From Pseudomonadota bacterium (GTDB lineage Bacteria > UBA10199 > 2-02-FULL-44-16 > JBDRGF01), in contig JBDRGF010000058.1 of assembly GCA_043818055.1 (NCBI GenBank), positions 1 to 37,352 of the forward strand: DNA of 37,352 bases, in the 5' to 3' direction. The translations under genes and the position numbers were made by a program. The notes beneath the pieces were generated by a model, which had not been told where the DNA came from, did no database searches, and saw nothing but the letters and a program-made list of their open reading frames with translations. Of the stretch, positions 3,836-26,352 are shown piece after piece (position 1 is the first letter of the stretch; each line of letters starts with the position of its first letter).

Positions 3836-5062
3836 ATGATTCATTCATTCACCTTTAAGAATTTTTGCTCTTTTTCCGGGGAAACTACAGTTAGTTTTAA
3901 AGATATTCGGAGCGGACAGGAAACTCAGAGCAATATGTTTGTTGATAGCCCGGCAGGTGTTTGTTTGAGTAAGATATCAACTGTTATAGGGCCGAATGCA
4001 TCAGGTAAAACAAATGTATTAAAAGCTTTGGTTTTTTTAAGCTGGTTCGTTCGCAATTCATTTGTTCGATTTGAGGGAGAAGGAGAAAAAATACCTGTAG
4101 ATACTTTTGCTTTTTCAGATCAGGCAGAAGGGACATCAGAATTTGAAATAGAATTTGAGCACAAGGCGGAGATTTATAAGTATCTGCTTCATCTATGTCA
4201 TACTCATGTCATAAAAGAGGAATTATACAGAAAAGATAAAAGGACCAATCATTTTAATTATTTATTTAAACGCGCCTGGAATGAATCTGATCAACGGTCT
4301 GAAATAACACAAAGAATTAATTTAAAGACAGAAGTTGTTAAAGAAATTTTGAGGAAGAATGTCTCTCTTATAGCAGCGTCAGTAGCTATTAAGAATGATT
4401 TTCTCTCTGATATGGCGTTCTTCTGGACAAAAATTATCAGCAATGTAAATCGGATTGGTAAATCCTGGGATACTGTATCTTTGGGGAAAGGTCTATTTCA
4501 TGCAGCCAAAGAATATAATGAAAATAGAGATTTATTAAATAAGGTTGTACATTTTTTGAAAGATATCGATTTGGGTTTAGACGATATCAGGATTGAAGAG
4601 GGAGAGTCTCAAAATACAGCGACAGGGGAGACAAAAAAAATATATCTGCCTTATGGTGTACATTTGGTCGATGGAAAAGAATATCAATTGCCATTTGCTT
4701 ATGAGTCTAGTGGTACAAAGAACATGTTTGTCCTGTTGCATTTCCTTTTGCCGGCGATTGAACAGGGTGGGATTGCTATAATTGATGAGTTGGAAGTAGA
4801 TTTACATCCACATGCTGTGCCCAGGATTATCGAGTTGTTTCAAAATCCTGCAACAAATCCCAAACACACACAACTATTATTCACTACTCATTCGCTTGAG
4901 GTGTTGAGCCATTTGGAAAAAGAGCAGGTAATCTTAGTTGAAAAAAACAGAGAATGTAGAAGTGAAACTTATAGATTGGATGACATAAAAGGTGTTCGAA
5001 GAGATGATAATATTTATGCCAAGTATATGTCTGGTGCTTACGGGGCGATACCGAATATTTAA
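3836..5062 (+). CDS. AAA/ABC-type ATPase (AAA_21, RloA/AbiEii-associated type)
   Basis: 408 aa; FKNFCSF N-terminus, Walker A GPNASGKT, signature ESSGT, Walker B IIDELE..LHP, QLLFTTH, C-terminal Y..G.YGAIP. AT-rich context. Confidence 0.9.
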   Translation: MIHSFTFKNFCSFSGETTVSFKDIRSGQETQSNMFVDSPAGVCLSKISTVIGPNASGKTNVLKALVFLSWFVRNSFVRFEGEGEKIPVDTFAFSDQAEGTSEFEIEFEHKAEIYKYLLHLCHTHVIKEELYRKDKRTNHFNYLFKRAWNESDQRSEITQRINLKTEVVKEILRKNVSLIAASVAIKNDFLSDMAFFWTKIISNVNRIGKSWDTVSLGKGLFHAAKEYNENRDLLNKVVHFLKDIDLGLDDIRIEEGESQNTATGETKKIYLPYGVHLVDGKEYQLPFAYESSGTKNMFVLLHFLLPAIEQGGIAIIDELEVDLHPHAVPRIIELFQNPATNPKHTQLLFTTHSLEVLSHLEKEQVILVEKNRECRSETYRLDDIKGVRRDDNIYAKYMSGAYGAIPNI

Positions 5063-10809: not shown

Positions 10810-12309
10810 TTACCGAAATTGTTTGTATATCGAATCATTGTAGGGGAGCATTTTGGTACAGGAAGCCGTTTTCGGGAAGTCAGAGAACGGCTTTCTTTTT
10901 TGATATTCAAGGGTTGTGCCGTTCAAGGCCAAGTTCGAAAGTGTAAGATTTATGATTTGCCGTTTTTGATCGACTTTCGAACTCTCGAATAGGTCGTAAG
11001 CGCGGGAAGCCAGATCAAACAAGGTCAGGAGGGTAGTGTTGAACTTTTCGTCGGCTTCTGTATGCCGCCTCAAATCCTCGCCTAATTCATCTTGCCTATC
11101 CCTCAATTGAGTACACTTTTTGTCATACTCACTCTGTGTAATACTCACCTCTAATCTCATATCCAATAGGCGTTCGAGTTTCTTTTGTGTGAGATTATAT
11201 TCGCTATGGATTCGATTGATTGCCTCCTGATGATATTCCCTTTTGGCCAGAGCCGATTTATTCAGATGATTCTTGATTGCGCTTAAAACATCATCGGGAA
11301 TCTGAAAGCCTTTGAATATATCATTGACCTGATCCAAGACCTGCTCTTCACGCAGCCTCTTGCCTTCACAAGGGCCTTTCGATTTCGTGCAATGCAGATA
11401 GACATATTTTTCCTTCTTGAGATCGCTGGTAATCGTGCATCCGCAATGTGCGCACTTGATGAGGCCTCGAAAGATGAATGGCTTGTCGGAATATTTAAAC
11501 GGCTTCTTTTTCCAGCCGAGACGAATCTCCTGACAGCGGTCAAACAACTCTTTTGAAATAATCGGTTCATGCTTTGCGGGAAGAATTTGTCCTTTTATTC
11601 TCATAACACCATAGTAAAAAGGATTTTGTATCAGCTTGTGAATTTTGCTCGACGGCATCGGGCCGCCATAGCTTGTTTTAAGCCCCCACTGTTTTGCAAG
11701 ACCGGCCATCTCACGAACTGACCTACCGCCTTGACCATACTCCTGAAAGATTCGTTTAACCAAGAAGGCTCTTTCCGGATCTGGAACAACTTTCTTTTTG
11801 CCTGTAGCAGGATCGATGGTGTTTATGTAGCCAACAGGTGCCTTGCCGATCCATTCACCGTTTTTTATCTTGTGATTGATACTCCGCTTAACGTTATCGC
11901 TCAAGCTCAACACATAAGAATTTGCCATCAAGACAGCCATATTCCACATGAGGATCTGTGTGCCGCTCGATTCACGGTTGATGACAAGGTTTTCACGGCT
12001 GAAATGAAGTTCGATAGTCCCTTTGAGCCTATATTCCTCAAGCAAAACAGTTTCCCTGAAACTTCTCTGAAACCGATCCACAGCATCGCATACTATTGCC
12101 ACCGTCTCCTTTTGCTTCTTCGCAAAGGCAAGCATCTGGTGAAATTCTTTCCGGTCGCCCTGTGTGGATGATTCGATAATTGTGAAGACCTTTAAGACCT
12201 TGAACTGTTTCCGCTGGCAGTATTCCTTGAGCCTCGCAATCTGGGCATTGATAGAGTGGCCTTCCTCCTGTTCCCTTGTTGATACTCTGGCAAGAATGAT
12301 TGATTTCAT
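10810..12309 (-). CDS. Large serine recombinase (integrase)
   Basis: ILARVST..Q..G.S...Q catalytic motif, DRFQR, G.W.GKAP.GY, recombinase domain NPFYYG..HEPIIS.ELF, zinc ribbon CAHCG..YLHC, coiled coil. Start set at MKSII (12309; AAGGCGG upstream), 499 aa; last 10 aa are host-derived. Confidence 0.95.
   Translation of the reverse strand: MKSIILARVSTREQEEGHSINAQIARLKEYCQRKQFKVLKVFTIIESSTQGDRKEFHQMLAFAKKQKETVAIVCDAVDRFQRSFRETVLLEEYRLKGTIELHFSRENLVINRESSGTQILMWNMAVLMANSYVLSLSDNVKRSINHKIKNGEWIGKAPVGYINTIDPATGKKKVVPDPERAFLVKRIFQEYGQGGRSVREMAGLAKQWGLKTSYGGPMPSSKIHKLIQNPFYYGVMRIKGQILPAKHEPIISKELFDRCQEIRLGWKKKPFKYSDKPFIFRGLIKCAHCGCTITSDLKKEKYVYLHCTKSKGPCEGKRLREEQVLDQVNDIFKGFQIPDDVLSAIKNHLNKSALAKREYHQEAINRIHSEYNLTQKKLERLLDMRLEVSITQSEYDKKCTQLRDRQDELGEDLRRHTEADEKFNTTLLTLFDLASRAYDLFESSKVDQKRQIINLTLSNLALNGTTLEYQKRKPFSDFPKTASCTKMLPYNDSIYKQFR
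10834..10860. other. Left attachment junction (core GGGGAG 10843-10848)
   Basis: Host ...ATCATTGTA|GGGGAG|CATTTTGGTACA... element; the core equals LSR codons Leu-Pro on the minus strand. Confidence 0.8.
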
Positions 12310-12401
12310 AAAACCGCCTTTTGAGCAGCATATTGCCATACTAATGGCCATTACTGAAGGTCCTTATTATGCCGATAGTTCAAATGGTTACGGTTGACAT
12401 T

Positions 12402-12467
12402 AATTATGCCACAACCTGTGGCAAAATTGCCGTTCTCCTCAATTGGGCAACCGCCCGTTGCCCTTTT
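12402..12467. repeat. Two 27-bp palindromic units (39-bp period) matching the yhcG internal repeat
   Basis: AATT-ATGCCAC-AACCT-GTGGCAA-AATT (12402-12428) and AATT-GGGCAAC-CGCCC-GTTGCCC-TTTT (12441-12467); 12439-12467 is 26/29 identical to 14435-14463. Confidence 0.8.
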
Positions 12468-12472
12468 GTCCA

Positions 12473-13015
12473 TCAATGCAAAATCAAATCTTCACGGAAC
12501 GGTTCATTTGCAAGCTTCTTCATAGCCTCAATCGAATAGTTCCAACTGAGGTTCTTTTGCGGTATTCTGTTCATCTCGCGAATCGTCTTCTGCATGTTAC
12601 ATTTCTCAACTCCATCATCCCTCAAAATATAGAACTGGTAATGCCTAATAAGATCGTTAATATTTCCAAGCACGCGCTTACTCGTACTACGCCCAACCTT
12701 GAAAACGCTGCCAACTTCCTTCGCTTTTCTGATCCACTCCGCTGAGAATCCTTCGGACAGCAAGGCATCGTAGAATGCGCTGTTGAACACCGCCGGAAGT
12801 TCATTCTTGAGCGTTGCCCTCGCAACATTGAATACGACGAAAGAAAACAGCGTTGCATCATTTACGAATATAATACCGTGATTACGAGAAACCCCAATGA
12901 CATGTGCATGCCAGTTACCAAGAGGCGAAATCGATACAGCATTATCGGATGCCAGTTGGTTCTCTGGAAGATCCAGCTTTTTTAACAATTTTTGCGTACA
13001 ACGTAATATCAGCAT
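12473..13015 (-). CDS. Hypothetical protein, DUF6933-like
   Basis: MLILRCTQKLLKKL, LGNWHAH, FVND.TLF, T.SKRVLG.IND, N.IP pattern recalled from DUF6933 proteins. Confidence 0.7.
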   Translation of the reverse strand: MLILRCTQKLLKKLDLPENQLASDNAVSISPLGNWHAHVIGVSRNHGIIFVNDATLFSFVVFNVARATLKNELPAVFNSAFYDALLSEGFSAEWIRKAKEVGSVFKVGRSTSKRVLGNINDLIRHYQFYILRDDGVEKCNMQKTIREMNRIPQKNLSWNYSIEAMKKLANEPFREDLILH

Positions 13016-13018
13016 CTT

Positions 13019-13591
13019 TTATCCTTTTTCAGAATCAATGTGCATCATCTTTTCACGACAACACCATTTGAATTTTTTGCCACTGCCGCATATGCAAGGA
13101 GAATAAGGATCAATATTCTTGATATTCAAGCGGAGATTTTCTCCTGCATAATCTTTATTTGCGCCTTTAATAACCTTCCATATTTTATGGGTTGGATTTT
13201 TTAAGGCAGTCTTTACCATTTTATAGTGTTCTTCTAAACGGTCGATGAAAATAGTGTCCATCAGAAGGACTTCCTTGAAGAGTTTTAATAATGCCGATGA
13301 ATACTCAGATTGAACGTTCAACTCGTCTAGAAAAGATTGTTCTTTTATATCATCATCCGGCAGCGGAGGTTCAAAGGAGTGATTGATGGTCGCTAAATGT
13401 TTCGCAGGCTTTTCAGAAACCACGTTGAACATTACTCGGCTACAATCACAATTCGGGTCAACGCAATAAAGTTCAACAAAGCCATAATTTCCTTTTGGCA
13501 AACCATCTTGTTCTTTAAAAACAGTGATTGTCCTTGTTTCTTCCAGCCCAATATCCGGAAATAGCTGGTGAAACATCATCATGCCTTCCAT
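13019..13591 (-). CDS. SEC-C motif protein
   Basis: C-terminal PCICGSGKKFKWCC; N-terminal ELYC.DP.CDC.RV cluster. Start set at MEGMMMF (13591; AGAGGTG RBS). Confidence 0.8.
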   Translation of the reverse strand: MEGMMMFHQLFPDIGLEETRTITVFKEQDGLPKGNYGFVELYCVDPNCDCSRVMFNVVSEKPAKHLATINHSFEPPLPDDDIKEQSFLDELNVQSEYSSALLKLFKEVLLMDTIFIDRLEEHYKMVKTALKNPTHKIWKVIKGANKDYAGENLRLNIKNIDPYSPCICGSGKKFKWCCREKMMHIDSEKG

Positions 13592-13661
13592 AAAACACCT
13601 CTTTACTGTTTTAATGTGGTAATAACCCGCTCTTATTACCACATTAATTGTTTCTATTACC

Positions 13662-14807
13662 CTATTTCGCCTTCCCTCGTTTTTTCCGAGTCTTTCTTTC
13701 GCCTGATAACTCCGACTCAATTTGTTTAACCGAAGGTAAGCTGCTTTTTAATTTAGCAGGAAGTTTTTGTGTCAGTTCATATCCAGATACGCCAATCGGT
13801 TTGTGAATATCGCGCAAGGCGTATTCGGCAAGTATCCGATCGCGATCCTGGCATAAAATCAGTCCTATTGTCGGATTGTCATTTTCGTCTCTCAGCTTGT
13901 CATCTACCACGCTGCAATAAAAATTCATCTTTCCGGCGTGTTCCGGTTTGAAGGGACCTTTTTTAAGTTCAATGACGATGTAAGAACGAAGTTTTAAATG
14001 ATAGAATAGGAGATCGATGTAGAAATCGTTTTCACTTACCTCAACATGATACTGACGTCCTACAAACGCAAAACCTTGTCCAAGCTCAATCAGAAATTTT
14101 TCAAGATGCTTGATGAGACCGGTTTCCAATTCACGTTCATGGAAGGGTTCCTCCAATGTCATAAAATCGAAAATGTACGGATCCTTGAGTGTTTGCTGTA
14201 CAAGGTCAGATTGAGGAGCAGGCAGGCGCGTCTTGAAATTCGATGTCGCCTTGCCATGACGTTTGTGGACGCTCGATTTTATCATGGCAACCAATACATC
14301 ACGACTCCAGCCCTGTTCCAACACTTGTTGCATGTACCAATATCGAATGCCCAGATCTTTAATCTTCTGCATCAGAACGATGTTATGTGCCCAAGGTATT
14401 TGTGAAACGAGCTGTTTCACTTTTTCGGCATCGTTCAATTGGGCAACCGGCGGTTGGCCTTTTTCAGTGGCTTGCAATTGGCCAACTGGCCGTTGGCTAA
14501 TTGAGATAACACCTTGATATTCCTTGTAAAATTGAACCATGAGCTTAAGATTCGTAACTGAAAACCCTTTGATTTCAGGGAGTTCATTATGAAGGTCTTT
14601 CGCCAACCTTGGTAATACACCAGCTCCCCAGCCTTCCTGATCTTGTCGTTCTGAAATCATCCAACCCACATCCCAATAGGTTGCAAGCATTTCCGAATTG
14701 GCTGCCCACATCGCCCGCGTCTGTCCTTGCCTGATTCTATTTTTGATCTCATCAAGGAGCTGGCCGTAATAAGCAAGATCAGATTTTTTGGTTAAAGCTT
14801 TTGTCAT
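13662..14807 (-). CDS. YhcG/DUF1016 PD-(D/E)xK nuclease family protein
   Basis: YWDVG, WG..V...LAKDL, KGFS..NL..M.QFY, KDPY.FDF, ELG.GFAFVGRQ, DLLFYH, VIELK, G.MNFY, PTIGLILC. Confidence 0.93.
   Translation of the reverse strand: MTKALTKKSDLAYYGQLLDEIKNRIRQGQTRAMWAANSEMLATYWDVGWMISERQDQEGWGAGVLPRLAKDLHNELPEIKGFSVTNLKLMVQFYKEYQGVISISQRPVGQLQATEKGQPPVAQLNDAEKVKQLVSQIPWAHNIVLMQKIKDLGIRYWYMQQVLEQGWSRDVLVAMIKSSVHKRHGKATSNFKTRLPAPQSDLVQQTLKDPYIFDFMTLEEPFHERELETGLIKHLEKFLIELGQGFAFVGRQYHVEVSENDFYIDLLFYHLKLRSYIVIELKKGPFKPEHAGKMNFYCSVVDDKLRDENDNPTIGLILCQDRDRILAEYALRDIHKPIGVSGYELTQKLPAKLKSSLPSVKQIESELSGERKTRKKRGKAK
14397..14502. repeat. Three in-frame 7-5-7 palindromic units, 39-bp period, inside yhcG
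   Basis: GTGAAAC-GAGCT-GTTTCAC (14402-14420), GGGCAAC-CGGCG-GTTGGCC (14441-14459), GGCCAAC-TGGCC-GTTGGCT (14480-14498). Confidence 0.85.
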
Positions 14808-15301
14808 GGAGTTGCCTCCTTAATAATCTCCTGAGTTTTATTCCTTTGATTAGCCCATTCGAGAAAATATCTACCGAACTCGCGATTCAGCGTTCTAACC
14901 CATTCAACAACATTCTCTCCTTGGGAGATGAGTTTATCAAAACATTTCCCGTAATATTCTTTATGAAAGTGATAAACGCCGTGCCGATATATTTTTAGGA
15001 GTTCAAGATTCTTCGATGCTATCAAATTGTCTATTACAGAGTCAGTTAGGCCAAGTTTTTCCCATCCTGCACATACAACATAAAGGCCAGCGTACCAGAG
15101 GCTCATGTACATTAATTGTTCAATATCGTTACCTGGTTTTGATTTGTTCTCCTCTTTAAAACATTCATCAAAATGCGTTCTCATTCTATTGGCCCAAATG
15201 AAGTAGCGGTGTAGTGTGAGAACTGCGAATTGATTTTTGAGGTGCGATATTTCGTTCTGCTTCTCCTCTCGTTTAGCTTTATTAGGTGATTCAATATTCA
15301 T
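14804..15301 (-). CDS. Hypothetical protein with HEPN-like Rx4H motif
   Basis: Helical-looking ~165 aa protein with YRHGVYH near the C-terminus; stop overlaps the yhcG start (ATGA). Start ATG 15301 or TTG 15307. Confidence 0.6.
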   Translation of the reverse strand: MNIESPNKAKREEKQNEISHLKNQFAVLTLHRYFIWANRMRTHFDECFKEENKSKPGNDIEQLMYMSLWYAGLYVVCAGWEKLGLTDSVIDNLIASKNLELLKIYRHGVYHFHKEYYGKCFDKLISQGENVVEWVRTLNREFGRYFLEWANQRNKTQEIIKEATP

Positions 15302-15328
15302 TACCAAAACCCTTTTGCCACTGGGGGG

Positions 15329-15769
15329 CTATCTTCCTGCATCTTTTGCTGCTTTTTCGATCCACTTTCCCATATTTTTATAGCCATCATTTTTATTCCA
15401 TAAATAAAAATCATATCCTTCAGGAATTCGACCACACCTTTCAGAAGTTTTGCCCTGTAAATCTTTTATTTTGCTGATATCTATGCCGAGCAATCCATTA
15501 CCTCTTTTAATGCTCTGACTAATTTCGTATTTTACCCACCTACTGTTGCAGGTTTTTTCGCCAACAAGTACGACGGTGACAGACGTTCCCTCTAATTGTT
15601 TATTAATCCATCCCTTGATAGCAACATCACCTTTCCTTTTTATTGCTTCAAAACTTGCGGCATCAACAAAACCTGCGGCTTCTCTTTCTTGCGTAACCCA
15701 GCTGTTTCTTACAACCATTGCTCTGGACACGTCTTTATATTTAAAACTGAAAAAGACTTTTCTGGCCAT
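15329..15769 (-). CDS. TIR domain protein (DUF1863 / Thoeris ThsB-like)
   Basis: RKVFFSF.Y, WI..QL.GTSVTVVLVG..T..SRWVKYEI..S...GNGLLGI; catalytic Glu present. Confidence 0.9.
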   Translation of the reverse strand: MARKVFFSFKYKDVSRAMVVRNSWVTQEREAAGFVDAASFEAIKRKGDVAIKGWINKQLEGTSVTVVLVGEKTCNSRWVKYEISQSIKRGNGLLGIDISKIKDLQGKTSERCGRIPEGYDFYLWNKNDGYKNMGKWIEKAAKDAGR

Positions 15770-15772
15770 ATG

Positions 15773-16204
15773 TTAATCTCCCTTCGATGCAAAGAATTGC
15801 AAATATACAAATAATCCTACCACCACTATAATCAGAGCTAGATATAATTTTATAATGGTAGTTGAAATAAGAACACAGCGGTATCTACACTTTCCTTCGG
15901 TGTATAGATCAGGCCTCATTTCGAATGGTTTTAGCTGTTTAGGATTTTCAGATATTCCGGCCACATCATTGTACAGTGCTCGGAATTTTCTTTCTTGAGT
16001 CAGGTAGTAGGAATCTAAGAACCAAAATATTATAATTGGGAAAACGCTGACGAGGATGAAGTAGTTATTATTTGTTGCCGCATAAACGGCCAGCAGCGCT
16101 GAAGTAATAGCTACAGTCCACTCCTTTATTTGAAAAGAGTTCGTATTCATTCTTGTGATTACATTCTGAATAAACTCTAAATGCTTTATTTTTTCGTCTG
16201 TCAT
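15773..16204 (-). CDS. Small membrane protein between two TIR genes
   Basis: 143 aa; HLEFIQ.VI.RM..NSF.IK.W then three hydrophobic segments and FWFLDSYYL..ER.FR.LY; AAGGAG RBS. Confidence 0.75.
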   Translation of the reverse strand: MTDEKIKHLEFIQNVITRMNTNSFQIKEWTVAITSALLAVYAATNNNYFILVSVFPIIIFWFLDSYYLTQERKFRALYNDVAGISENPKQLKPFEMRPDLYTEGKCRYRCVLISTTIIKLYLALIIVVVGLFVYLQFFASKGD

Positions 16205-16241
16205 ATAATCTCCTTATCAACCACAGGTGATATGTGATCCC

Positions 16242-16874
16242 TTAATAAATATGAGTAGTGTCATGAACTTTACACTTCAAATTTCGCCATATCATCTCTT
16301 GTGGATTGTCTATGAGATAAGATTTATTTAAAGATTGATTGTAAGCTTCCTCAATCCATTGTCTCAATTGTTCAGAATTGGTGGGCCATTTATAATATCT
16401 AGCGTATGAGATATCGGCCAAGTCAAAAAAGTGATTTTTTGAGAATCTGTCTGGCCTGTAGTGCCCAATGACATTTCCATATATATCAAAAGGAGGTGGC
16501 ACTTCTAGACCTAAAAGACCGTTTGGAAGGCCATTGGCCGGTTGTCGGAGAGAGCTTTTTATTTCCCAATCAACATATTTCCGACTATGAGTACACTGTC
16601 CAATCACCACAATAGTAACAGAAGTATCCTGAATGTATCTTTTTCTAATTTGCGAAATAATATATTCAGAGTCAGTACTATCCACAAAGTCATCTTCATC
16701 CTTAACGCCAACAACGCGAGGTATGAATGCGCCTGTTCCAGGTTGCCCATAATCATCAACCAGTTGTTTCACCCAATCCTTATCGCCCTTGTAATAAGAT
16801 ATAAAAACCTTCCTTCTAGGTAGGAGGTCTATCAAGTTTTCGTAAAGAAATGGATTTCTATCAAAAAGCCCCAT
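16242..16874 (-). CDS. TIR domain protein (DUF1863 / Thoeris ThsB-like)
   Basis: RRKVFISYY..D, IR..YI.DTSVTIVVIG.CT.SRKYVDWEI.SSL, NGLLG; catalytic Glu present. Confidence 0.9.
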   Translation of the reverse strand: MGLFDRNPFLYENLIDLLPRRKVFISYYKGDKDWVKQLVDDYGQPGTGAFIPRVVGVKDEDDFVDSTDSEYIISQIRKRYIQDTSVTIVVIGQCTHSRKYVDWEIKSSLRQPANGLPNGLLGLEVPPPFDIYGNVIGHYRPDRFSKNHFFDLADISYARYYKWPTNSEQLRQWIEEAYNQSLNKSYLIDNPQEMIWRNLKCKVHDTTHIY

Positions 16875-16875
16875 G

Positions 16876-19800
16876 CTATTTGTTTTGCTCCTTTTGTTCT
16901 TTCAGTACCTCCACACATTCCGCAATGACTTTCAATTCGCCTTCTTCTGCATCGGTGAAAACTATCGGCTCAAAATCCGGATTGTTTGGTTTCAACGTAA
17001 TCTTTGTGTGCCGCCAGTCGTCATCCGTTTGCTCTTTTTCACTTTCATATCGCTTCACGGTATAGCGTTCGCCGGTTTCCGGATCTGAGATGTCACGCAT
17101 CTGGACAAGGACTGTTTTACCTCGTCTGGTTCCCTCAACAGGCGAAACAAAGAGACAGTAGGAGCCATCCGGTATTGCTGGCTCCATCGACTTTCCAACC
17201 ACCTGAGCGACAAACATGCCTTTGCGAAGGCTGTGTTTGGAGCTAATAGCAACCCATTCCCAGTCGCCGTTCTCGACTTGTTGTGGGTCGCTAAAGGCAC
17301 CTGCTGCAACTTTGAGTGGAACCAGAGGCACGCAATTCACATATCGCTCTTCTGGCTTCGGGTAGACAACCTTGAGATGGTGTGCAGAAGAAACTTGATG
17401 TGTCGCACCTGCACTGGCCAAATCTGTTTTATATGTTTGCGAAAACACAGTATCAGAGAGCCATTTTTTGAAATTTGGGTTGTCGCTGAATTGTTTGAAC
17501 AATTCCGTGTGGTCAGAGAGCAAATCAATAACAACCCTTTGCAAGGCACGATCATGCTCTAAACGCGCAGCCGCCTTGTCAGAATGCTTCATTGCATTCT
17601 GGTACTTCACATCCGCCGACACTTTTTCAGGAATTTCTTCGGCAATGATTTTTCGAATTTTATCTTCATCCTTCCAGTCAATATTGCCAAACTGTTCATT
17701 GAATGATTTGACAATATTACTCAGTCTATCCAGTTCGGGTTCCGGTTTGCCTCCACCATAACTGGTAGGCACCGGTCCCACCTCAGAATCTGTATCAGGC
17801 AGCGCAATCCGCATCGTTTCCTTTACCTCATTGCGGTAACTGTCCATGTCGATAGTCTCAAGAATCCCCTTGGACAAATCTTCCTCTACTGGAGCTGGCA
17901 ACTTGGGGACTAGAAAATTGAGAAAAATGGACAGTTTCTCCCAACCGGCATTCGTATAGGGAAGAATAGATGCCAGGAATTGATATGTGCGAACAAATGC
18001 CTTGGCCTTTCCTTTAAAATCTACCTGTCCATTTTCATCCAAATCACTGGTGTAAAATGCAACGCACGCATCCAAAATAGGATCTAGCTTATCGCGCTCT
18101 GCTCCCCCAAGAAACAGGGCAGCCAACGTCTCGACCTGATCAGTGTTATAGACCTGATATCCATCCAACGTGGCCTTTAAGTCATGTAGTTTGTTGGGAT
18201 CTGTTTCTTCACTTAAAACGGTTGTCCGGTAGTAATCGGAAAACGCGAGCGTAATTGTGTCGGTATCATTCATGAAGTCGAGCACAAAGGTGTCTACTTT
18301 TTGAGGGTGGGCGCGATTAAGCCGCGATAATGTTTGGACGGCCTTAACTCCTGAGAGCTGTTTGTCCACATACATGGTGTGAAGCAGGGGTTCATCGTAG
18401 CCCGTCTGAAACTTATCGGCAACGACCAGCAACCGGTATGGATCTTGCTGAAATTTTTTCACGATCTGCGAACTAGGGAATTCATTGAAGGAGGCTTCGG
18501 ACATCTGTTTGCCACAGATCTCACGTTCACCTGAAAATGCCACAATCGGACGATATGGACTCTTACGTTCTTTGAGATATGCGGATATCGCTTGAAAGTA
18601 CTGGATGGCGCGATTGATGCCGCTGCAGATAACCATCGCACGGGCTTTTCCAGCAATCTTTCGCCGTGCAACAACTTGTTCATGAAAATGGTCCACCATG
18701 ATCTCAGCTTTTTGCCTAATTGCATGATCATGTGACTCAACGTAGCGTCGCAGTTTTTTCTTAGCCCTTTTGGTATCGAACTCTGGATCGTCTTCAACTG
18801 TCTTGATAAGCCGGTAATAGCTCTCAACCGGCGTGTAATTGGCCAAGACATCTAAAATAAAACCCTCTTGAATGGCCTGCTTCATGGTGTAGCTGTGAAA
18901 AGGGCGGTGCTTTATCTTGTCTCCGGACGGAATGGGTTCGCCAAAAAGCTCCAATGTTTTATTCTTGGGTGTGGCGGTAAAAGCAAAATAGCTTGCGTTA
19001 CCAAGCATCTTGCGCGATTCCATAATACGGTTGATCGTATCCTCAAATGTCTCATCCTCCTCCTCGCCGCCATTTTCAGCGAGTGCAATGTTCATTTTTG
19101 CTGATGTCCGCCCTCCCTGGCTAGAGTGGGCCTCATCAATAATAATGGCAAACGATTTTCCGCGATGCTCATCGCCAATCTCGTCGAGGATGAACGGAAA
19201 CTTCTGTACTGTGGAGATAATGATCTTTTTTCCCTCTTTTAGAAATTTTCGTAAATCCCCGCTATGCTCAGCATGCCCAACAGTCGCCGAGACTTGCGCA
19301 AACTGCTTGATTGTGTCCTTGATTTGTTTATCGAGGATCCTGCGGTCCGTCACCACAATGACTGACTCGAATGTTGATTGACCACTCTGATCTAAACCAA
19401 TCAGTTGATGTGCCAGCCACGCAATAGAATTGCTTTTACCGCTTCCTGCCGAGTGCTGAATCAAGTACCGTTTGCCAGATCCTCTCTCTTTGGCATCGGC
19501 CAATAATTTTCGGACAACATCAAGCTGGTGATACCGTGGAAAGATCTGTTTGCGTGATTTCTTGCGGCCTTTTTCATCTTTTTCTTCGATAACCTGGGCA
19601 TAGTTTTCGATGATATCTGTAAGACCGACTTTGGTTAAGACCTCTTCCCACAAATAAGCTGTTTTAAGCCCGTTGGGATTTGGAGGATTACCCGCACCGT
19701 CATTAAATCCTTTATTAAAGGGTAAAAACCATGAATCATTCCCTTTAAGATGAGTGCACATCCTCACTTCCTGATCATCCACCGCAAAGTGTACAATGCA

Positions 19801-20358
19801 GCGGCCAAATTGAAACAATAGTTCTTTGGGGTCGCGATCCCGTTTATATTGCTGGATGGCATCGGCAACGGTCTGTTTGGTCAGGCGATTCTTGAGCTCA
19901 AATGTGGCAACGGGCAAACCGTTGATAAAAACACCAAGATCGAGTGAAAGTTGTGTTTCGTCTTTGCTGTACCTTAGCTGCCTCGTTACGCTAAAGATAT
20001 TGGATCGAAAGCGTTCTTCTGCTTTGAGATTGCCGGGGGTTGGAGAGCCATAAAAGAGATCAAGGTGAACCGGACCGTGTTTTACGCCATGGCGCAGGAC
20101 ATCGATGACACCACGCTTGGCGATTTCTCCTTGGAGCCTATGTAAAAACTGAGTTCGCTTGGGGCTTTCTTGCGCTAGGTCGAGCGCATTTGCAACATCG
20201 ACCTGGGTTGTTTCAGTAAACGCTCGAAGTTGTTTGAGATCAATGGAATGGTCGCGATCGAAATCGGCAGGTTCGCCTTTAATATAACCGGCCTGATTGA
20301 CAAGGGATTCAACAATGAGTGTTTCGAGACCTTTTTCAGATGTGTCAGTTGTTCGCAA
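16876..20358 (-). CDS. hsdR: Type I restriction enzyme R subunit with C-terminal S24 (LexA-like) peptidase domain
   Basis: DL..FINGLP....ELKN nuclease motif, [32 protein letters not shown]; last ~160 aa contain [15 protein letters not shown] and TVKRY. Confidence 0.95.
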
Positions 20359-21718
20359 CGGCCACCTCCTCGTCTATTAGGTCATCAGCCTCTACGATTT
20401 CTTCGTCAATTATGGGCTCTTCTTGTAACTCCTCAACATCAGCATCAAGATCGATATTTTTTGCCAGTTCACGGACATCTATTTTGCCTGTTACGACGTC
20501 TGTTATGAGGCGTGTGCGGTATTCTTTGATGAGGTCGATTTCTTTACGAGCGGTATGAACTGCTTTTTCAAAATATTGAGAAATTTTCTTTATTTTTATA
20601 ACAATATTCTTCTGTTCATCAATAGTTGGTAAAACAACTTTTTGTTTTTTTACAACGCTACCAGTTATAAGCGGTTGGGCGTTTGCATTAGCCAACACGT
20701 TTAAATTCATGGCTCTCATCTGAAAGCTCAAATATTCTATGTCGAAGCAACGGATATTATTTACCCTCAGTGCATTGTCTGTAATCCATGCATTTTCAGT
20801 TATAAGATGTACATTACCACATAATGCACCTACTCTACCTATTACGATAGTTGCACTTTCACTGTTGTAATGATTTGCATAGCCTAGTATGCCGTTACCG
20901 CCTATCACGGGAAAAAGATGGGGTATGTTTTTATTATCGGTTATCTTGTTACCATCTAAGAATGTCCCTGAAGATATACTTATATACCAGCGAAGGGGTA
21001 CAACTCTCCAATGCTCCGGAATCTCCCCAACCCACTCAACACCAGACGCTTTCATTTTTACATTCGGGTCAAGGCCGCGCGTTACAACCTTGTTGATAAT
21101 CGCCTGCTTTTGTTCATTAAGAACCTTGATAAGCTTTTGGCGGTTGCGGATGAAGCGAGCAACCTTTTGCTCAAAAGATCTCAAAAACAGCACTATTGAA
21201 TCTTGTTCAGTCTTCGGTGGCATACAAGAATAGATCATCTTGAAATGTTCAGGTCGCAAACTCCACATATCAGAAGTGATGCCATACGACCATCTCTCAG
21301 CCTCTTTGGCAAAAGCAGGAGTTCTAAATAAATAATGAAAATAATCAGAATTATCATCTTGTCGCAACCTGACTACAATATATGCAGGACTAACTATGCC
21401 ACGATATTTCGAAACCCCAATAGCACCTTGCCAGGCACGCATCTTGTTATAGGCAATGTCTCCCGGGTCCACCAACTTGTACTTTGCCTTATCTAAGTTT
21501 GAAGAGTCTTTTTTTGAAGAATTGGCCAGTAGGTCTTTTTGCTTAAGAATACCTTTGGAAATAGTCACTGACAATAACGGTTCTTCCGTATAGCCTTGTT
21601 TCTTGATCTCTTGAAAGACAGCACGATGCGGTACGCATTCCCAATGTTCTGGAATGTTGCCCAGCCAGGCTTGCTCAGAATCCTTATATTCGGGATAGGG
21701 TTTAAATTCTTGCGTCAT
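20345..21718 (-). CDS. hsdS: Type I restriction-modification specificity subunit
   Basis: Two target-recognition halves each starting W.G.IPEHW; PP..EQ / P..DEQ spacers; [15 protein letters not shown]; acidic tail. Confidence 0.93.
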
Positions 21719-23631
21719 GCCGCAGTCCCTCCTGGAGTAATGATTTGATCCAGCAATCCTTCGGCTTCATTTTGGAGTGCAATGAGATCTGTTTTGATTT
21801 CATCTAAAGAACGCAACGGTACGGGTTTATAAAAGTGTTTGGTAAAAGAGATTTCGTAGCCTATTTGAGTCTTGCTATGATCAATCCAAGCATCAGGTAC
21901 GTGGGGCAAGACTTCGCGCCTAAAAAAGGCATCGATGCCGCCTTCTTCTAAAAGCGGAACCTGTTCAGTATCGCGTAAATCGGAGTCCGGTTCATGTTCG
22001 ACACCATTTTTCGTCTTCTTTTTAAGTACCGGAGGGGCATCGGGTGAGGTGCCGTTCTTTTCTCTAAGCTCTTTTAACTCTTTTGCCTTGTAAACTTTGT
22101 TGGGATCTATCCCCCGTATTCGGAGTGGGCGTTCAACCGTTATCTTCCAATACCCAAAAGCCTGATTATCAAAAATCTTCGATTGCTCCGATTCCTCAAA
22201 AGACAAAAACATATCCGAGATTTGTTTGATTTGTGCATCTGAAAATTCACAATTCTTTTTTCCAAGATTCTTACGAAGTGGCTGAAAAATATTGGTGGCG
22301 TCGATTAATTGAACTTTCCCCTGACGTGCTTTAAGTTTGCGATTGGAGAGCACCCAAATGTAGGTGGCAATACCGGTGTTATAAAACATATTGAGTGGGA
22401 GTGCGATGATGGCCTCAAGCCAGTCATTTTCTATAACCCACCTGCGGATATTTGATTCGCCCTGTCCGGCATCACCCGTAAAAAGCGACGAACCATTGTG
22501 AACCTGCGCAATACGGCTGCCGAGCTCGGTGTTATGATTCATTTTGGCGAGCTTATTAACGAGAAACATCAACTGGCCATCACTGGAGCGAGTAATGAGG
22601 GATAACTCGTCACCTTTGTGCTGCACAGCAAATCGCGCATCTGAAAGATCTTTTTTTCCACCCATTCGCTCTAAATCGGTCTTCCAACTCTTGCCGTAAG
22701 GTGGATTGGAGAGCATAAAATCAAATTCCATTGAGGGGAAGGCATCGGAAGAAAGCGTTGAACCATACTTCATATTGTCAGCCGCTAATCCCTCACCCTT
22801 AATCAATAGGTCGGCCTTGCTAATTGCGTAGGTTTCGGGTTGGACTTCTTGGCCGAACAGATGAATCGAAACATCTTTTCCGTGATCCTTGGCTAACTGA
22901 TCGAGTGTTTCTTCGGCCAAGGTGAGCATTCCACCTGTGCCGCAAGCACCGTCATAAACGCGATAGGTGGCATCTTGAATTTTATCGGCGACCGGATAGA
23001 AAATCAGATTCGTCATGAGCTTCACAACATCACGCGGGGTAAAGTGCTCACCCGCTTCTTCATTATTTTCTTCATTAAAGCGGCGGATGAGTTCTTCAAA
23101 GATTGTACCCATTGCATGGTTATCCAAGCCGGGGAGCCTCTCCTTGCCGTCCTGATCAAAGACCGGTGTGGGTGCCAGATTGATATCGTTGGATGTGAAT
23201 TTTTCAATTAAGCTGCCAAGAATATCGGCCTCAACCAATGTAGGGATTTGATTGCGAAACTTAAACTTGTCGAGAATCTCCTGCACATTGGGCGAGAAAC
23301 CGTCGAGGTAGGCCTCGAAATCCGATTTAAGCTGTTGCTGCTTGGATCGTGCCCGTAAATCACGAAGGGTAAACGGGGAGATGTTATAAAAGGCATTCTC
23401 TGCTGCCTGACAGAGGGCCGCATGTTTATTGGCTACTCCAGCCTCATCGAGCTGCTTGCTTAATTTAAGTACGGCTTCTTTTGTGGGCTCCAGGACGGCA
23501 TCAAGTCGGCGAATGACGGTCATAGGTAATATGACGTCGCGATATTTCCCACGCACATAAACATCCCGCAGCACATCATCAGCAATGCCCCATATAAAAT
23601 TTGCAATCCAATTTAGTTTTCCATTTTGCAT
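21715..23631 (-). CDS. hsdM: Type I restriction-modification methyltransferase
   Basis: FIW.IAD..LR, AGEHFTPR.V, YDGACGTGGML, NPPYG, GSSLFTG, MFYNTGI.TYIW. Confidence 0.96.
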   Translation of the reverse strand: MQNGKLNWIANFIWGIADDVLRDVYVRGKYRDVILPMTVIRRLDAVLEPTKEAVLKLSKQLDEAGVANKHAALCQAAENAFYNISPFTLRDLRARSKQQQLKSDFEAYLDGFSPNVQEILDKFKFRNQIPTLVEADILGSLIEKFTSNDINLAPTPVFDQDGKERLPGLDNHAMGTIFEELIRRFNEENNEEAGEHFTPRDVVKLMTNLIFYPVADKIQDATYRVYDGACGTGGMLTLAEETLDQLAKDHGKDVSIHLFGQEVQPETYAISKADLLIKGEGLAADNMKYGSTLSSDAFPSMEFDFMLSNPPYGKSWKTDLERMGGKKDLSDARFAVQHKGDELSLITRSSDGQLMFLVNKLAKMNHNTELGSRIAQVHNGSSLFTGDAGQGESNIRRWVIENDWLEAIIALPLNMFYNTGIATYIWVLSNRKLKARQGKVQLIDATNIFQPLRKNLGKKNCEFSDAQIKQISDMFLSFEESEQSKIFDNQAFGYWKITVERPLRIRGIDPNKVYKAKELKELREKNGTSPDAPPVLKKKTKNGVEHEPDSDLRDTEQVPLLEEGGIDAFFRREVLPHVPDAWIDHSKTQIGYEISFTKHFYKPVPLRSLDEIKTDLIALQNEAEGLLDQIITPGGTAA

Positions 23632-23647
23632 GAGTTACCTCTATCTT

Positions 23648-24478
23648 TTACAGTTTATTTTTTCTGATAGTGACATATCTTATTAGCTCATATGTAGCCC
23701 TACAATAATAGGGCATCAAATTAAAATAACCTTCAACTTCAGTGCGTGTAAATTTGGAGCCGGTTGGATGACCTGCTGAGTTACGGCTGGTCTTAATTAG
23801 TAAAAATATACCTGGAATATGATGCTCAATAGCATCACGTAGTGCGCCATTATCATTCAATATCGTTCCTTTATGCGCCTGAAGATAATTGCTAAATCCC
23901 TCCCATTTTTTATGGATTAGATTAGGTTTTAGAACTTTTCTTTCATACGAATCATAAGTGCTAACTTTTTTTGAGAAGGCCGCCATCAATTCCAATATAA
24001 TTGTCTCGCTGACGTTACCCAACATTGTCATTGTCGCAATATAGCAACCTGATCGAAAACAATGGAGAGCTTCTGTTAAATAGAGTTCGGCTTTTTCAGA
24101 TAAATTGGTGTCGTTCTTTATATTGGCAACGTATCCATCGGGGTCATAAGGCGTTACAATCCCATTTTGAAAACATTGACTCCCATATTCTGTAATTGTC
24201 AGCCACGGCCATGAGTCATTTTGGTTTCCGGGAATCCCCGGCATTAACAAACCCTGTGTAATCAAGGACCACACAATTTGAAGTACAAACTCGGATTCCT
24301 TTCTGTATTCTCTGTTTAGAAAGTCAGAACCATCATCAAACTGGCACCGAATAAAACCAAGCTCCTGTGCACAGAGTGCTGTGCCCCTTAGCACATTCCC
24401 AAATTGAAGTTGCTCCGAGCGTTGGAGAGCCTTTTGAAAAAACAAAAAAACTGCTTTGTGTGTGTCGCTATATTCCAT
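23648..24478 (-). CDS. Hypothetical protein with C-terminal HEPN-like (DUF4145/Abi-like) domain
   Basis: YL.EA..CF..G.Y.A...MLG...E followed by RNSAGHP (Rx4H); N-terminal region ending W..ITEYG resembles a winged helix. Confidence 0.65.
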   Translation of the reverse strand: MEYSDTHKAVFLFFQKALQRSEQLQFGNVLRGTALCAQELGFIRCQFDDGSDFLNREYRKESEFVLQIVWSLITQGLLMPGIPGNQNDSWPWLTITEYGSQCFQNGIVTPYDPDGYVANIKNDTNLSEKAELYLTEALHCFRSGCYIATMTMLGNVSETIILELMAAFSKKVSTYDSYERKVLKPNLIHKKWEGFSNYLQAHKGTILNDNGALRDAIEHHIPGIFLLIKTSRNSAGHPTGSKFTRTEVEGYFNLMPYYCRATYELIRYVTIRKNKL

Positions 24479-24889
24479 TCAAAACCCCAATAACTTTGTA
24501 ATTTGCGCTACCTGTTTGGCTACCTTGGTTATTCCGGCACAGGTCATGACCACCGTGTGAATCTTCTGCAGTTTGCTCTCGCCATTGCGGTCGTTTATTG
24601 CCTCATTGACGGTCTTACGGATGGTATTGGATTTGGGATGATCGCCGATATTCTTGGCGATTGATCTGAGTGCCACATCGAACTGGTTATTCAGATCGAC
24701 TGTCACGCCAACGCCGGGTTTTATGGGGATGGAGATATGCATGCCGACGCTATCATTGGGACCAACCTTACCCCCGATTTGCAAGCCGACCACACGCCTT
24801 GGTCGATCAAGACGCTGTTTGCATCTTGGGCATGAGACGGGGCTTGCTTTTTTGGGCGTCCATTCATATTCGCAATATTCACATTTCAT
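24479..24889 (-). CDS. Zinc-ribbon-containing hypothetical protein
   Basis: CEYC..EW.PK...P..CPRCK at the N-terminus; start set at MKCEYC (24889; AAGGAG upstream). Confidence 0.65.
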   Translation of the reverse strand: MKCEYCEYEWTPKKASPVSCPRCKQRLDRPRRVVGLQIGGKVGPNDSVGMHISIPIKPGVGVTVDLNNQFDVALRSIAKNIGDHPKSNTIRKTVNEAINDRNGESKLQKIHTVVMTCAGITKVAKQVAQITKLLGF

Positions 24890-24926
24890 GGTATGAGCTC
24901 CTTTGACCGGATATTTATTACTATTA

Positions 24927-26084
24927 TTATTCACCTGTCAACAATTTGCTTTTCTGTGTACCCATTGCGTTTGAAAGCCTTATGGGGTCGAATAATTCCA
25001 AATCGTCACTTATCTTTTTCAAAGCACCGGTTATAGGACTGCAATGTCCCTTCGTGCCCATATTGCTTTGCATTCGTTTCAGTGTGGCGGCAGCCGTCTT
25101 GCCCAAAATAGATTTTATGCCCCGTATCCCTATTGTGTCTGTTGCCGTTATCAACCCCAACATCTGCAATGCCGTTGATGGCCGGATGTTTGGGTTGTTC
25201 TTAACGATCTCCTGCAATAGTTCTTCAGGCCTCTGCTTCTCGAACTGCAACCATTTGGCCTCGGACATGATCTGGTTCCAGAAATGGAGAAGGATGGTCT
25301 GCGATGTTTTTTGATTGAGGGCATCTGTGAATGTCAGAGGCGGTTCTATTCCAAGCTTGTGACAGAGCCTTTTGATCTTGGCGCGGCTGTTTAAGCGGGC
25401 TTCCATCCGGAGGACTTCGAAGGGCTTTGGCAAATGGTGAAGCAAGTCTAGCTGAATTGAATTGTCTGATTCAATCGCACGCCTCTCGCTGATTCTGGAT
25501 TGCATGAGGTCTTTGATCTTATCGTAGAAGACGATCTCGTAACTGTTTGCATGATACCGAAGGGCGTGGCCGTTGTTACGATAGTCGGTCTTGTTGAGAT
25601 CAAGGCGGCTGTTCAGATTCAGTTTCGAGAGTTGGCGTAAGACCATTGAGCTCGTTGTGTAATCCGTGAAGACAAAGTTCTTTGAGTAATGGACGGCGGA
25701 GAGTTTCGAATTGGTTACTTGAAATGGCAGGATTTTAACACCTGTTGCTAATGCCTCATTAGCAAAAAACGCGCTATGACCTGTCGTGTTTTTGAGGTCG
25801 TCTTCCTCAAAATTGTTGCCAAAAAGAAGCTTCGGTAGCGAAAATTCAGCACGAAGATATTCCGCATAACCGCCTCTTGCGATACGTTTTGTCAGTGTGA
25901 ATCGCGGTCTATAAATGCCGCGTGCAAGGTCTTCTTTGCTGGGATTCTGAAAACACCTGACGCACCCATTGCGCCCGATTCGATTGGGAGGGGCTTCCAT
26001 CATCCGTGCAGATGGGCTAAAGAGATCAGGCTCAAGAATCTCAAACTGATCCTTCTCAAATGTGATTGCTATCGTATCGATCAT
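24927..26084 (-). CDS. Phage/plasmid replication initiator (gene II/X-like, rolling-circle type)
   Basis: MIDTI start, EFSLPKLLFGNN, IVFYDK..D, VLR.E.RL motifs recalled from the gene II/X replication protein family. Confidence 0.7.
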   Translation of the reverse strand: MIDTIAITFEKDQFEILEPDLFSPSARMMEAPPNRIGRNGCVRCFQNPSKEDLARGIYRPRFTLTKRIARGGYAEYLRAEFSLPKLLFGNNFEEDDLKNTTGHSAFFANEALATGVKILPFQVTNSKLSAVHYSKNFVFTDYTTSSMVLRQLSKLNLNSRLDLNKTDYRNNGHALRYHANSYEIVFYDKIKDLMQSRISERRAIESDNSIQLDLLHHLPKPFEVLRMEARLNSRAKIKRLCHKLGIEPPLTFTDALNQKTSQTILLHFWNQIMSEAKWLQFEKQRPEELLQEIVKNNPNIRPSTALQMLGLITATDTIGIRGIKSILGKTAAATLKRMQSNMGTKGHCSPITGALKKISDDLELFDPIRLSNAMGTQKSKLLTGE

Positions 26085-26352
26085 TGTGTTTCCTCATCAC
26101 GTCTTCAAATTTTCTGACAACAGCCTCTTCAATAATCCTGCCGCACTCGTGTGTGATAGGATGAACGACCGGACGATTGATAATGTTCGATTTTCCGTTT
26201 GGATAGGTCAGCCGATAACCGTCACCGCCCAATCGCTTATGAATGGCTATTGAGCCGACGTATATCTGGCCGTCGATTACAAGACTTGCAAAGCCGACAA
26301 GACCATCACAGGGCTTCACAAAACTGATGTTCACCTCGGATATCTTCATCAC
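26056..26352 (-). CDS. SpoVG-like nucleic-acid-binding protein
   Basis: MKISEVNI......GLVGFAS.VID....V.SIAI, L.YP, HPI..E....IE.AV..KF matches the SpoVG pattern. Confidence 0.8.
   Translation of the reverse strand: MMKISEVNISFVKPCDGLVGFASLVIDGQIYVGSIAIHKRLGGDGYRLTYPNGKSNIINRPVVHPITHECGRIIEEAVVRKFEDVMRKHNDRYDSNHI

Follow-up and report, generated by a model that had tools for sequence, protein, structure and literature searches.

An S24 autopeptidase tail on a Type I restriction subunit, a candidate built-in damage switch recurring on many defence enzymes

Introduction

It has long been asked how cells keep their own restriction enzymes away from chromosomes that are damaged or only half repaired. 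After DNA damage, Type I enzymes require alleviation, which families IA and IB obtain via ClpXP, and S24 domains expose buried C-terminal degrons on cleavage. Self-cleavage of S24 domains occurs on RecA filaments (PMC8565304, PMC9926225; published sources are cited throughout from the portions of their text that were covered). The DNA analyzed here, termed the window, is the whole 37,352-nucleotide stretch of contig JBDRGF010000058.1 from a Pseudomonadota bacterium (assembly GCA_043818055.1), which holds an hsdR gene with an apparent S24 domain at its C-terminal end. What, then, is an autopeptidase doing on a restriction subunit? An initial annotation had proposed an SOS-responsive switch of the enzyme, or release of a fragment that signals to the adjacent TIR gene. 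The present study examined the fusion, its relatives, and the readings that they allow.

Results

HsdR Carrier and Its Operon

The hsdR gene is an ORF at 16876-20358 on the minus strand, which encodes 1160 residues in a frame that is open throughout. It is located together with hsdS and hsdM, making the Type I restriction-modification gene set complete at this locus (Pfam, PADLOC). The features are as follows.

17431..20358, minus strand: HsdR core, residues 1-976 (Pfam HSDR_N, ResIII, SWI2_SNF2, and T1R_D3; PADLOC REase_I), with the nuclease motif D..E-L-K from residue 140, Walker A at 302, and DEAH at 408 by motif reading
20345..21718, minus strand: hsdS, specificity subunit (Pfam, PADLOC)
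21715..23631, minus strand: hsdM, N6 methyltransferase (Pfam, PADLOC)
17359..17430, minus strand: variable linker, residues 977-1000, not conserved among fusions
16903..17358, minus strand: S24 autopeptidase module, residues 1001-1152 (PF00717; model compared with LexA, lambda CI, and UmuD)
17299..17304, minus strand: predicted scissile bond Ala1019-Gly1020 (GCA-GGT, read in the sequence)
17188..17190, minus strand: predicted nucleophile Ser1057 (TCG, read in the sequence)
17053..17055, minus strand: predicted general base Lys1102 (AAG, read in the sequence)
16242..16874, minus strand: ThsB-like TIR gene directly downstream of hsdR (Pfam ThsB_TIR)

The nuclease, Walker A, and DEAH motifs of the window HsdR were all intact on inspection, and the protein scored 207.5 bits against TIGR00348, which is under the cut-off of 284.55, so that it was assigned to no subfamily. 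Judged by its domains and motifs, the carrier is a genuine Type I HsdR. Among the 120 closest HsdR cores, 116 are 955-1013 residues long and end a few residues past a WL..T.F..TY motif, so that the window core was placed to end near Y976 (17431), which agrees with the earlier suggestion that this HsdR type ends ahead of the linker. Two close relatives carry other add-ons, namely a 150-residue C-terminal tail of no named family and an N-terminal HNH (P0214, P0224). An RNA run (X5) covers parts of the hsdR and TIR genes, not the S24 part, and promoter-like sites were counted at the chance level (28 versus 26.3 expected).

The junction is covered by one contig of run X1 (17248-17658), which spans the core end, the linker, and the cleavage site with no difference; it is not independent support, because X1 may be the source sample. 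An assembly error or a unique stop-loss, which had been raised as a possible cause of the fusion, is ruled out by its recurrence in GTDB genomes, where a relative of the tail was found at 154 loci and 39 of the best 80 are C-terminal fusions to HsdR.

Sequence and Fold of the S24 Tail

Peptidase_S24 (PF00717) matched residues 1012-1147 of the window HsdR with an E-value of 3.8e-9 and 36.7 bits, above the curated cut-off of 23.3, which bears out the initial reading of an HsdR-S24 fusion. Its further claim of an intact cleavage site and Ser-Lys dyad also held, as the codons were found at the positions listed above, and the Ala-Gly site and dyad are present at S24 family spacing. The distances from site to Ser and from Ser to Lys are 38/45 in the close domains, near the 38/43 of lambda CI (numbering of PMC9926225). 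Within a set of 144 distinct close domains, to which 5 more missed by the search pattern can be added, Ala at P2 and P1 as well as the Ser and Lys were conserved in 144/144, and Gly at P1' in 143/144. A more diverse sample, consisting of the 124 of 150 representatives (50% clusters) that cover all three sites, retained the intact site and dyad in 114 members, the Ser in 124, and the Lys in 122. Over 13 pooled sister pairs, one internal-insertion pair being left out, the domain had a dN/dS ratio of 0.16 and the carriers one of 0.26; the ratio for the 45 codons that precede the domain was 0.43. The S24 domain is under purifying selection.

The domain modeled from its family alone gave a pLDDT of 47.9. 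With 30 ordinary S24 rows added, the pLDDT was 81 and the model resembled the LexA, lambda CI, and UmuD structures (Foldseek E-value of 7e-7 to LexA; best TM of 0.65 to lambda CI on the RecA filament), a match that is only partly independent because of those added rows. No solved structure was matched when PDB sequences were searched with the domain or with its family profile, and a PDB match made with a LexA-containing alignment was discarded as circular. Pfam gave no HTH on the window protein, which was also without a match to TIGR00498. By its sequence and modeled fold, the tail is hence an S24 member and not a repressor. It shares with LexA, lambda CI, and UmuD the Ala-Gly site, the Ser-Lys dyad, the fold, and the xAA before the bond, whereas it lacks the DNA-binding domain of the LexA/CI repressors and is fused to defence enzymes. 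It is only approximately 25% identical to LexA, from which it also differs in a D-P-E-T-G loop ahead of the Lys strand, after which comes a longer hairpin.

Probable Gain of the Tail

Among the 120 closest HsdR cores, at 78-84% identity, only 2 carry the tail; it is on 0 of 24 further cores with DNA. Since 118 of the closest cores are without it, the tail is unnecessary for this HsdR type. In a quick tree of 50 core rows (every third of the 120 closest, plus the carriers and 4 outgroup rows), the window HsdR fell within a 99% branch alongside 26 unfused rows. Its S24 domain is nearest (84%) to one whose core is only 40% identical. On the core tree and on the S24 tree alike, the tails on the window's HsdR clade require at least 3 changes, for which gain and loss are indistinguishable; the S24 tree was likewise built quickly and leaves 86 of its 146 branches open. 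The simplest reading of these sequences is that the window hsdR acquired its tail separately, by recombination.

Family of the Tail and Its Carriers

The last 207 residues were used as the query of a GTDB search, which found a relative at 154 loci, of which the best 80 were kept. When carriers were classed by best match to reference carriers, some of them being partial or broken, the best 80 of the 154 loci comprised 39 C-terminal HsdR fusions, 20 IIG/ISP-type methyltransferase-specificity chains, 6 HindI-type HsdR with the domain inside, 3 Druantia-E-like helicases, 1 Type III Res, 1 HTH protein, and 10 short or unassigned carriers, among them one PIN fusion. The HsdR-S24 arrangement suggested for the window is therefore widespread. 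The nuclease, Walker A, and DEAH motifs were kept in 49/49 long HsdR carriers.

A protein search yielded 2357 proteins of 269-2000 residues, with an HTH family in 0 of the 120 matches listed, and a metagenome scan added at least 581 relatives of the tail. When 50% clusters were searched with a profile, 401 reached E<=1e-30; weaker matches may include ordinary S24 proteins. Carrier domains were scanned in 70 of the best 150 representatives, picked by length. These contained 12 ISP specificity domains, 2 other IIG-type, 4 HsdR, 4 Druantia-like, 6 Schlafen-group-3 helicases, 2 Schlafen AlbA_2, 2 McrC/LlaJI-like, 2 PLD, 2 HNH, 5 Type III or other SF2 helicase/endonuclease, 1 methyltransferase, 1 HTH, and 27 without a further family. 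A named partner domain was thus found in 43 of the 70, and 41 of these are nucleases, helicases, or restriction-modification subunits, against 1 HTH. The module was detected in 6/93 genomes of the host phylum; it was rare in a phage collection (1 full match among 4 loci) and occurred in 1 record of a plasmid collection. From its sequence relationships, the S24 tail is a distinct mobile subfamily on many classes of defence enzyme, which are unrelated to one another and cut DNA or RNA.

Several carriers showed features of their own. In the IIG/ISP pairs L149/L139, L020/L032, L105/L114, and L021/L154, the dS of the S24 domain was 8 to 15 times below that of the carrier, and carriers or specificity domains seem to have been exchanged ahead of a constant tail. 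A PLD-SNF2 helicase gene precedes the IIG/ISP-type carrier in 8 loci (L004:1352-8507 and similar), and the N-terminal domain of this carrier type gave no clear nuclease motif on inspection by eye. In Halomonas sp. PA16-9, the sole named cultured carrier among those found, the S24 module comes after a long P-loop helicase ORF and lies in a different frame (L099:6974-9444, plus strand), an arrangement that resembles a frameshifted fusion. Five database entries (P0262, P0271, P0282, P0314, and P0328, compared with L008, L014, L003, L040, and L015) list the tail as a free 165-190-residue "S24 family peptidase", although at those loci it is actually within the fused frame; such entries represent split annotation or an internal start, and may have masked the fusion.

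TIR Neighbor and Surrounding Island

The TAG stop codon of hsdR ends at 16876 and the TIR ATG is at 16874, leaving a gap of 1 nt, and the GC content drops from approximately 0.46 to 0.38 at this border. Neither of the TIR genes nor the membrane gene lying between them had a match in the best 80 of the 154 related loci. In loci L001-L080 and L089-L179, many of which have little downstream DNA, a protein search matched only the window's own TIR genes; the TIR comparisons used the window TIRs and Pfam. Among 43 downstream ORFs scanned, 1 TIR_2 was found. The TIR gene is a neighbor and not part of the S24 module. Thoeris-type signaling coupled to HsdR-S24 was consequently rejected, and with it the proposal that a released fragment signals to this gene, as TIR is not conserved beside the S24 carriers in the loci searched.

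The region 15329-16874 (minus strand) has two ThsB-like TIR genes flanking a gene for a 143-residue membrane protein that matches PADLOC PDC-M50A; no ThsA match was obtained beside this cassette (Pfam, PADLOC). The hsd operon is located in a defence-rich island that ends with a large serine recombinase (10810-12351). The island-like block extends over roughly 10810-26352 (minus strand), between a metG/outer-membrane gene and typA, and contains the serine recombinase, DUF6933, a SEC-C protein, a YhcG nuclease, the TIR cassette, hsdRSM, three unknown genes, and a SpoVG-like ORF. A 29-nt repeat, 90% identical and partly palindromic, occurs at 12439-12467 and 14435-14463, one copy being intergenic before the recombinase and one within yhcG, with a weaker third 39 nt on. 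At 13611-13647, close to where the SEC-C gene starts, lies a 15-bp inverted repeat without mismatches around a 7-nt loop. Elsewhere in the window, an AAA_21/AAA_15 ATPase gene with a GC content of approximately 0.35 lies amid housekeeping genes (3836-5062, plus strand).

Putative RecA Contact and the Predicted Cleaved End

The host genome possesses recA, clpX, clpP, umuDC, and a LexA-like repressor, and recA was found in 5/5 carrier genomes checked. The repressor (L082:1468-2124, minus strand) has a Cys-Gly site and is below the TIGR00498 cut-off; the umuDC pair is at L081:92-1914 (minus strand).

The pocket for the RecA L2 loop is formed by F111, L113, and V153 in LexA and by F141, L143, and F189 in lambda CI (PMC9926225). 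Over the 124 diverse members, the corresponding positions hold Phe at Ser-8 (122/124) and Tyr or Phe at Lys-3 (116/124), while Ser-6, which is Leu in LexA, CI, and UmuD, is Ala in 108/124; two of the three pocket positions are thus matched. The acidic patch D150-D151-E152, used by LexA on RecA, is replaced by G, G/Q/E, and R/S in the tail family, which has conserved acids instead at Lys-10 and Lys-8, within an inserted loop. Because the pocket fits in part, Ser-6 is Ala, and the acidic patch is displaced, the RecA dependence of the tail is regarded as likely but not secure from these residues.

The sequence before the bond is xAA in 118/124 diverse members. ClpXP C-degrons are hidden at this place in LexA-like proteins (PMC5742171, PMC10584840), and in another organism ClpXP accepts substrates that end in VAA, IAA, or SAA (PMC12203970). 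However, xAA is also present in 26/28 ordinary S24 proteins, so its conservation is no sign of selection for a degron, and was rejected as proof of one for not being discriminating. The natural AA ends of unfused HsdR were likewise not counted as degron evidence, being confounded by kinship and start-stop overlap. Such ends occur in 23/70 distinct unfused HsdR tails, which are kin rows, versus 7/1483 host ORFs and 16/696 locus ORFs. In an independent sample of unfused HsdR with DNA they occur in 2/24, neither with a start-stop overlap. HsdS proteins end in AA in 8/29 cases, all with TGA, and 7 of the 8 read GCA-TGA, which is the start-stop overlap pattern (ATGA). These seven hsdS genes are in L002, L007, L008, L041, L052, L063, and L100, and the window hsdM ends in the same way at 21715.

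Discussion

Proposed Route from Damage to Restriction Shut-Off

The tail most likely works, by analogy, as LexA-type cleavage and restriction alleviation combined in one chain. RecA filaments on damaged DNA would trigger self-cutting of HsdR at Ala1019-Gly1020, and the cut core would end in Val-Ala-Ala, a likely tag for ClpXP. The tagged HsdR would then be degraded and restriction shut off, with HsdM-HsdS modification continuing. We infer from the related systems that the domain cleaves with RecA as its trigger, and that degradation of the product leaves the enzyme off overall, and we give this whole reading, from RecA-stimulated cut through the VAA tag and ClpXP to built-in alleviation, a probability of about 0.5. 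Defence enzymes might acquire the module by fusion as a portable SOS-off cassette. It is an even bet that the S24 subfamily is a plug-in damage switch, which reads the RecA filament, cuts its carrier, and links defence to SOS without transcription, and we give the same odds to its repeated grafting, in this role, onto Types I, IIG/ISP, III, and IV, Druantia-like and Schlafen helicases, and stand-alone nucleases. The built-in switch of the initial annotation thus survives in part: an intact, conserved S24 domain on an intact HsdR in a host with recA, clpX, and clpP agrees with it, while its signaling to TIR was abandoned.

The direction of such a switch is best argued from four full-length HindI-type HsdR (L075, L076, L078, and L080), in which the domain separates the Q-motif from Walker A. 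A cut there would separate the nuclease from the motor, which favors off over on. Known damage responses of Type I enzymes also go downward (PMC12707154). The unregulated EcoKI motor is lethal even without the nuclease (PMC4231737), so alleviation needs removal of the whole subunit. Other carriers count against off. The IIG/ISP carriers (20 of the best 80 of 154 loci) hold the methyltransferase, so their loss would remove modification too, and one can just as easily picture a release from inhibition for carriers of the Schlafen, HNH, PIN, and McrC-like kinds. The direction may hence differ between carriers, with Schlafen, HNH, and PIN suiting an on-switch.

Alternative Readings

Self-cutting might instead turn the enzyme on, if the tail inhibits or dimerizes the carrier until RecA filaments, on ssDNA that is damaged or from phage, set it free, possibly as an infection or damage sensor in abortive defence that resembles the conversion of UmuD to UmuD'. 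Activation by S24 cleavage has a precedent in UmuD, likely toxic carriers were present among the 70 scanned (Schlafen, HNH, PLD, and McrC/LlaJI-like) in addition to PIN, and SOS-inducing phages could abuse an off switch. We nevertheless consider this reading unlikely, though a serious rival: besides the HindI-type insertion and the downward responses described above, the tail-less close relatives are intact and common, therefore an inhibitor is unnecessary, and the cleaved product would carry an xAA end. It is distinctly unlikely that the domain cleaves without RecA, as a slow timer or upon dimerization of two HsdR on DNA, or that it serves mainly as a dimerization or RecA-tethering module. 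Type I holoenzymes do have two HsdR and S24 domains dimerize, and the residues contacting RecA match only in part. The LexA-like IrvR cleaves without RecA (PMC7101444). Against this, the Phe at Ser-8 and the aromatic at Lys-3 are almost invariant, and a pure tether would have no need of the intact site and dyad kept in 114/124 members.

Another target of the cut is improbable, whether the 141-residue fragment signals to TIRs, acts in trans by cutting a partner, or damps SOS or prophage induction through competition for RecA filaments. The 1-nt spacing to the TIR gene, the 5 entries giving the tail as a free protein, and the approximately 10 of the best 80 of 154 loci with a short or unassigned carrier speak for a fragment of this kind; the TIR counts given above (0 of the best 80 loci, 1 in 43 downstream ORFs) and the lack of a conserved downstream partner, the largest downstream clusters amounting to 5 of the best 80 of 154 loci, speak against it. 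Finally, the tail could be a passenger, that is, a functionless repressor fragment left by stop-loss or misassembly. It is optional, it is found in few genomes of the host phylum (6/93), and some carriers are broken, yet hundreds of independent fusions, the dN/dS of 0.16, repeated gains, and the X1 contig have already largely refuted this reading, which we hold to be very improbable. The reading that we prefer accordingly stays the damage-triggered shut-off of restriction.

Comparison with Known Systems

A close parallel to this shut-off is the alleviation of EcoKI (Type IA/IB) by ClpXP, in which, as proposed for the window enzyme, HsdR is destroyed after damage with modification continuing (PMC12707154, PMC4231737). 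EcoKI differs in being without an S24 domain and in being recognized during translocation; its signal for ClpX was sought, and the portion covered of that account reports no simple terminal degron (PMC4231737). The tag of the window HsdR would, by contrast, come from a self-cut in the same chain. A Type I system of P. aeruginosa controlled by a Lon-like protease (10.1101/2024.10.21.619520) shares post-translational control of HsdR against autoimmunity, but it is triggered by heat and depends on separate proteases without a fused autopeptidase. Engineered masked C-degrons (PMC5742171) likewise hide a degron behind a cleavable extension; they are synthetic and need a separate protease, whereas the window tail is natural and self-contained. 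The literature searched by term, including Type I reviews and defence/nuclease surveys in the portions covered, contained no description of an HsdR-S24 fusion, which supplements might list. The parts are known, and their combination is apparently undescribed.

S24 proteins in the literature covered are repressors or UmuD-like, and control in cis of a large enzyme would differ from both. If the preferred reading is true, the tail would be a ready-made degradation tag triggered by damage; restriction alleviation would for the first time have a self-contained mechanism, and HsdR its first defined degron. Alleviation, reported for Type I only in the portion covered of PMC4231737, would also be extended to other enzyme classes, and hosts of such enzymes would pass through a period after damage in which they admit foreign DNA.
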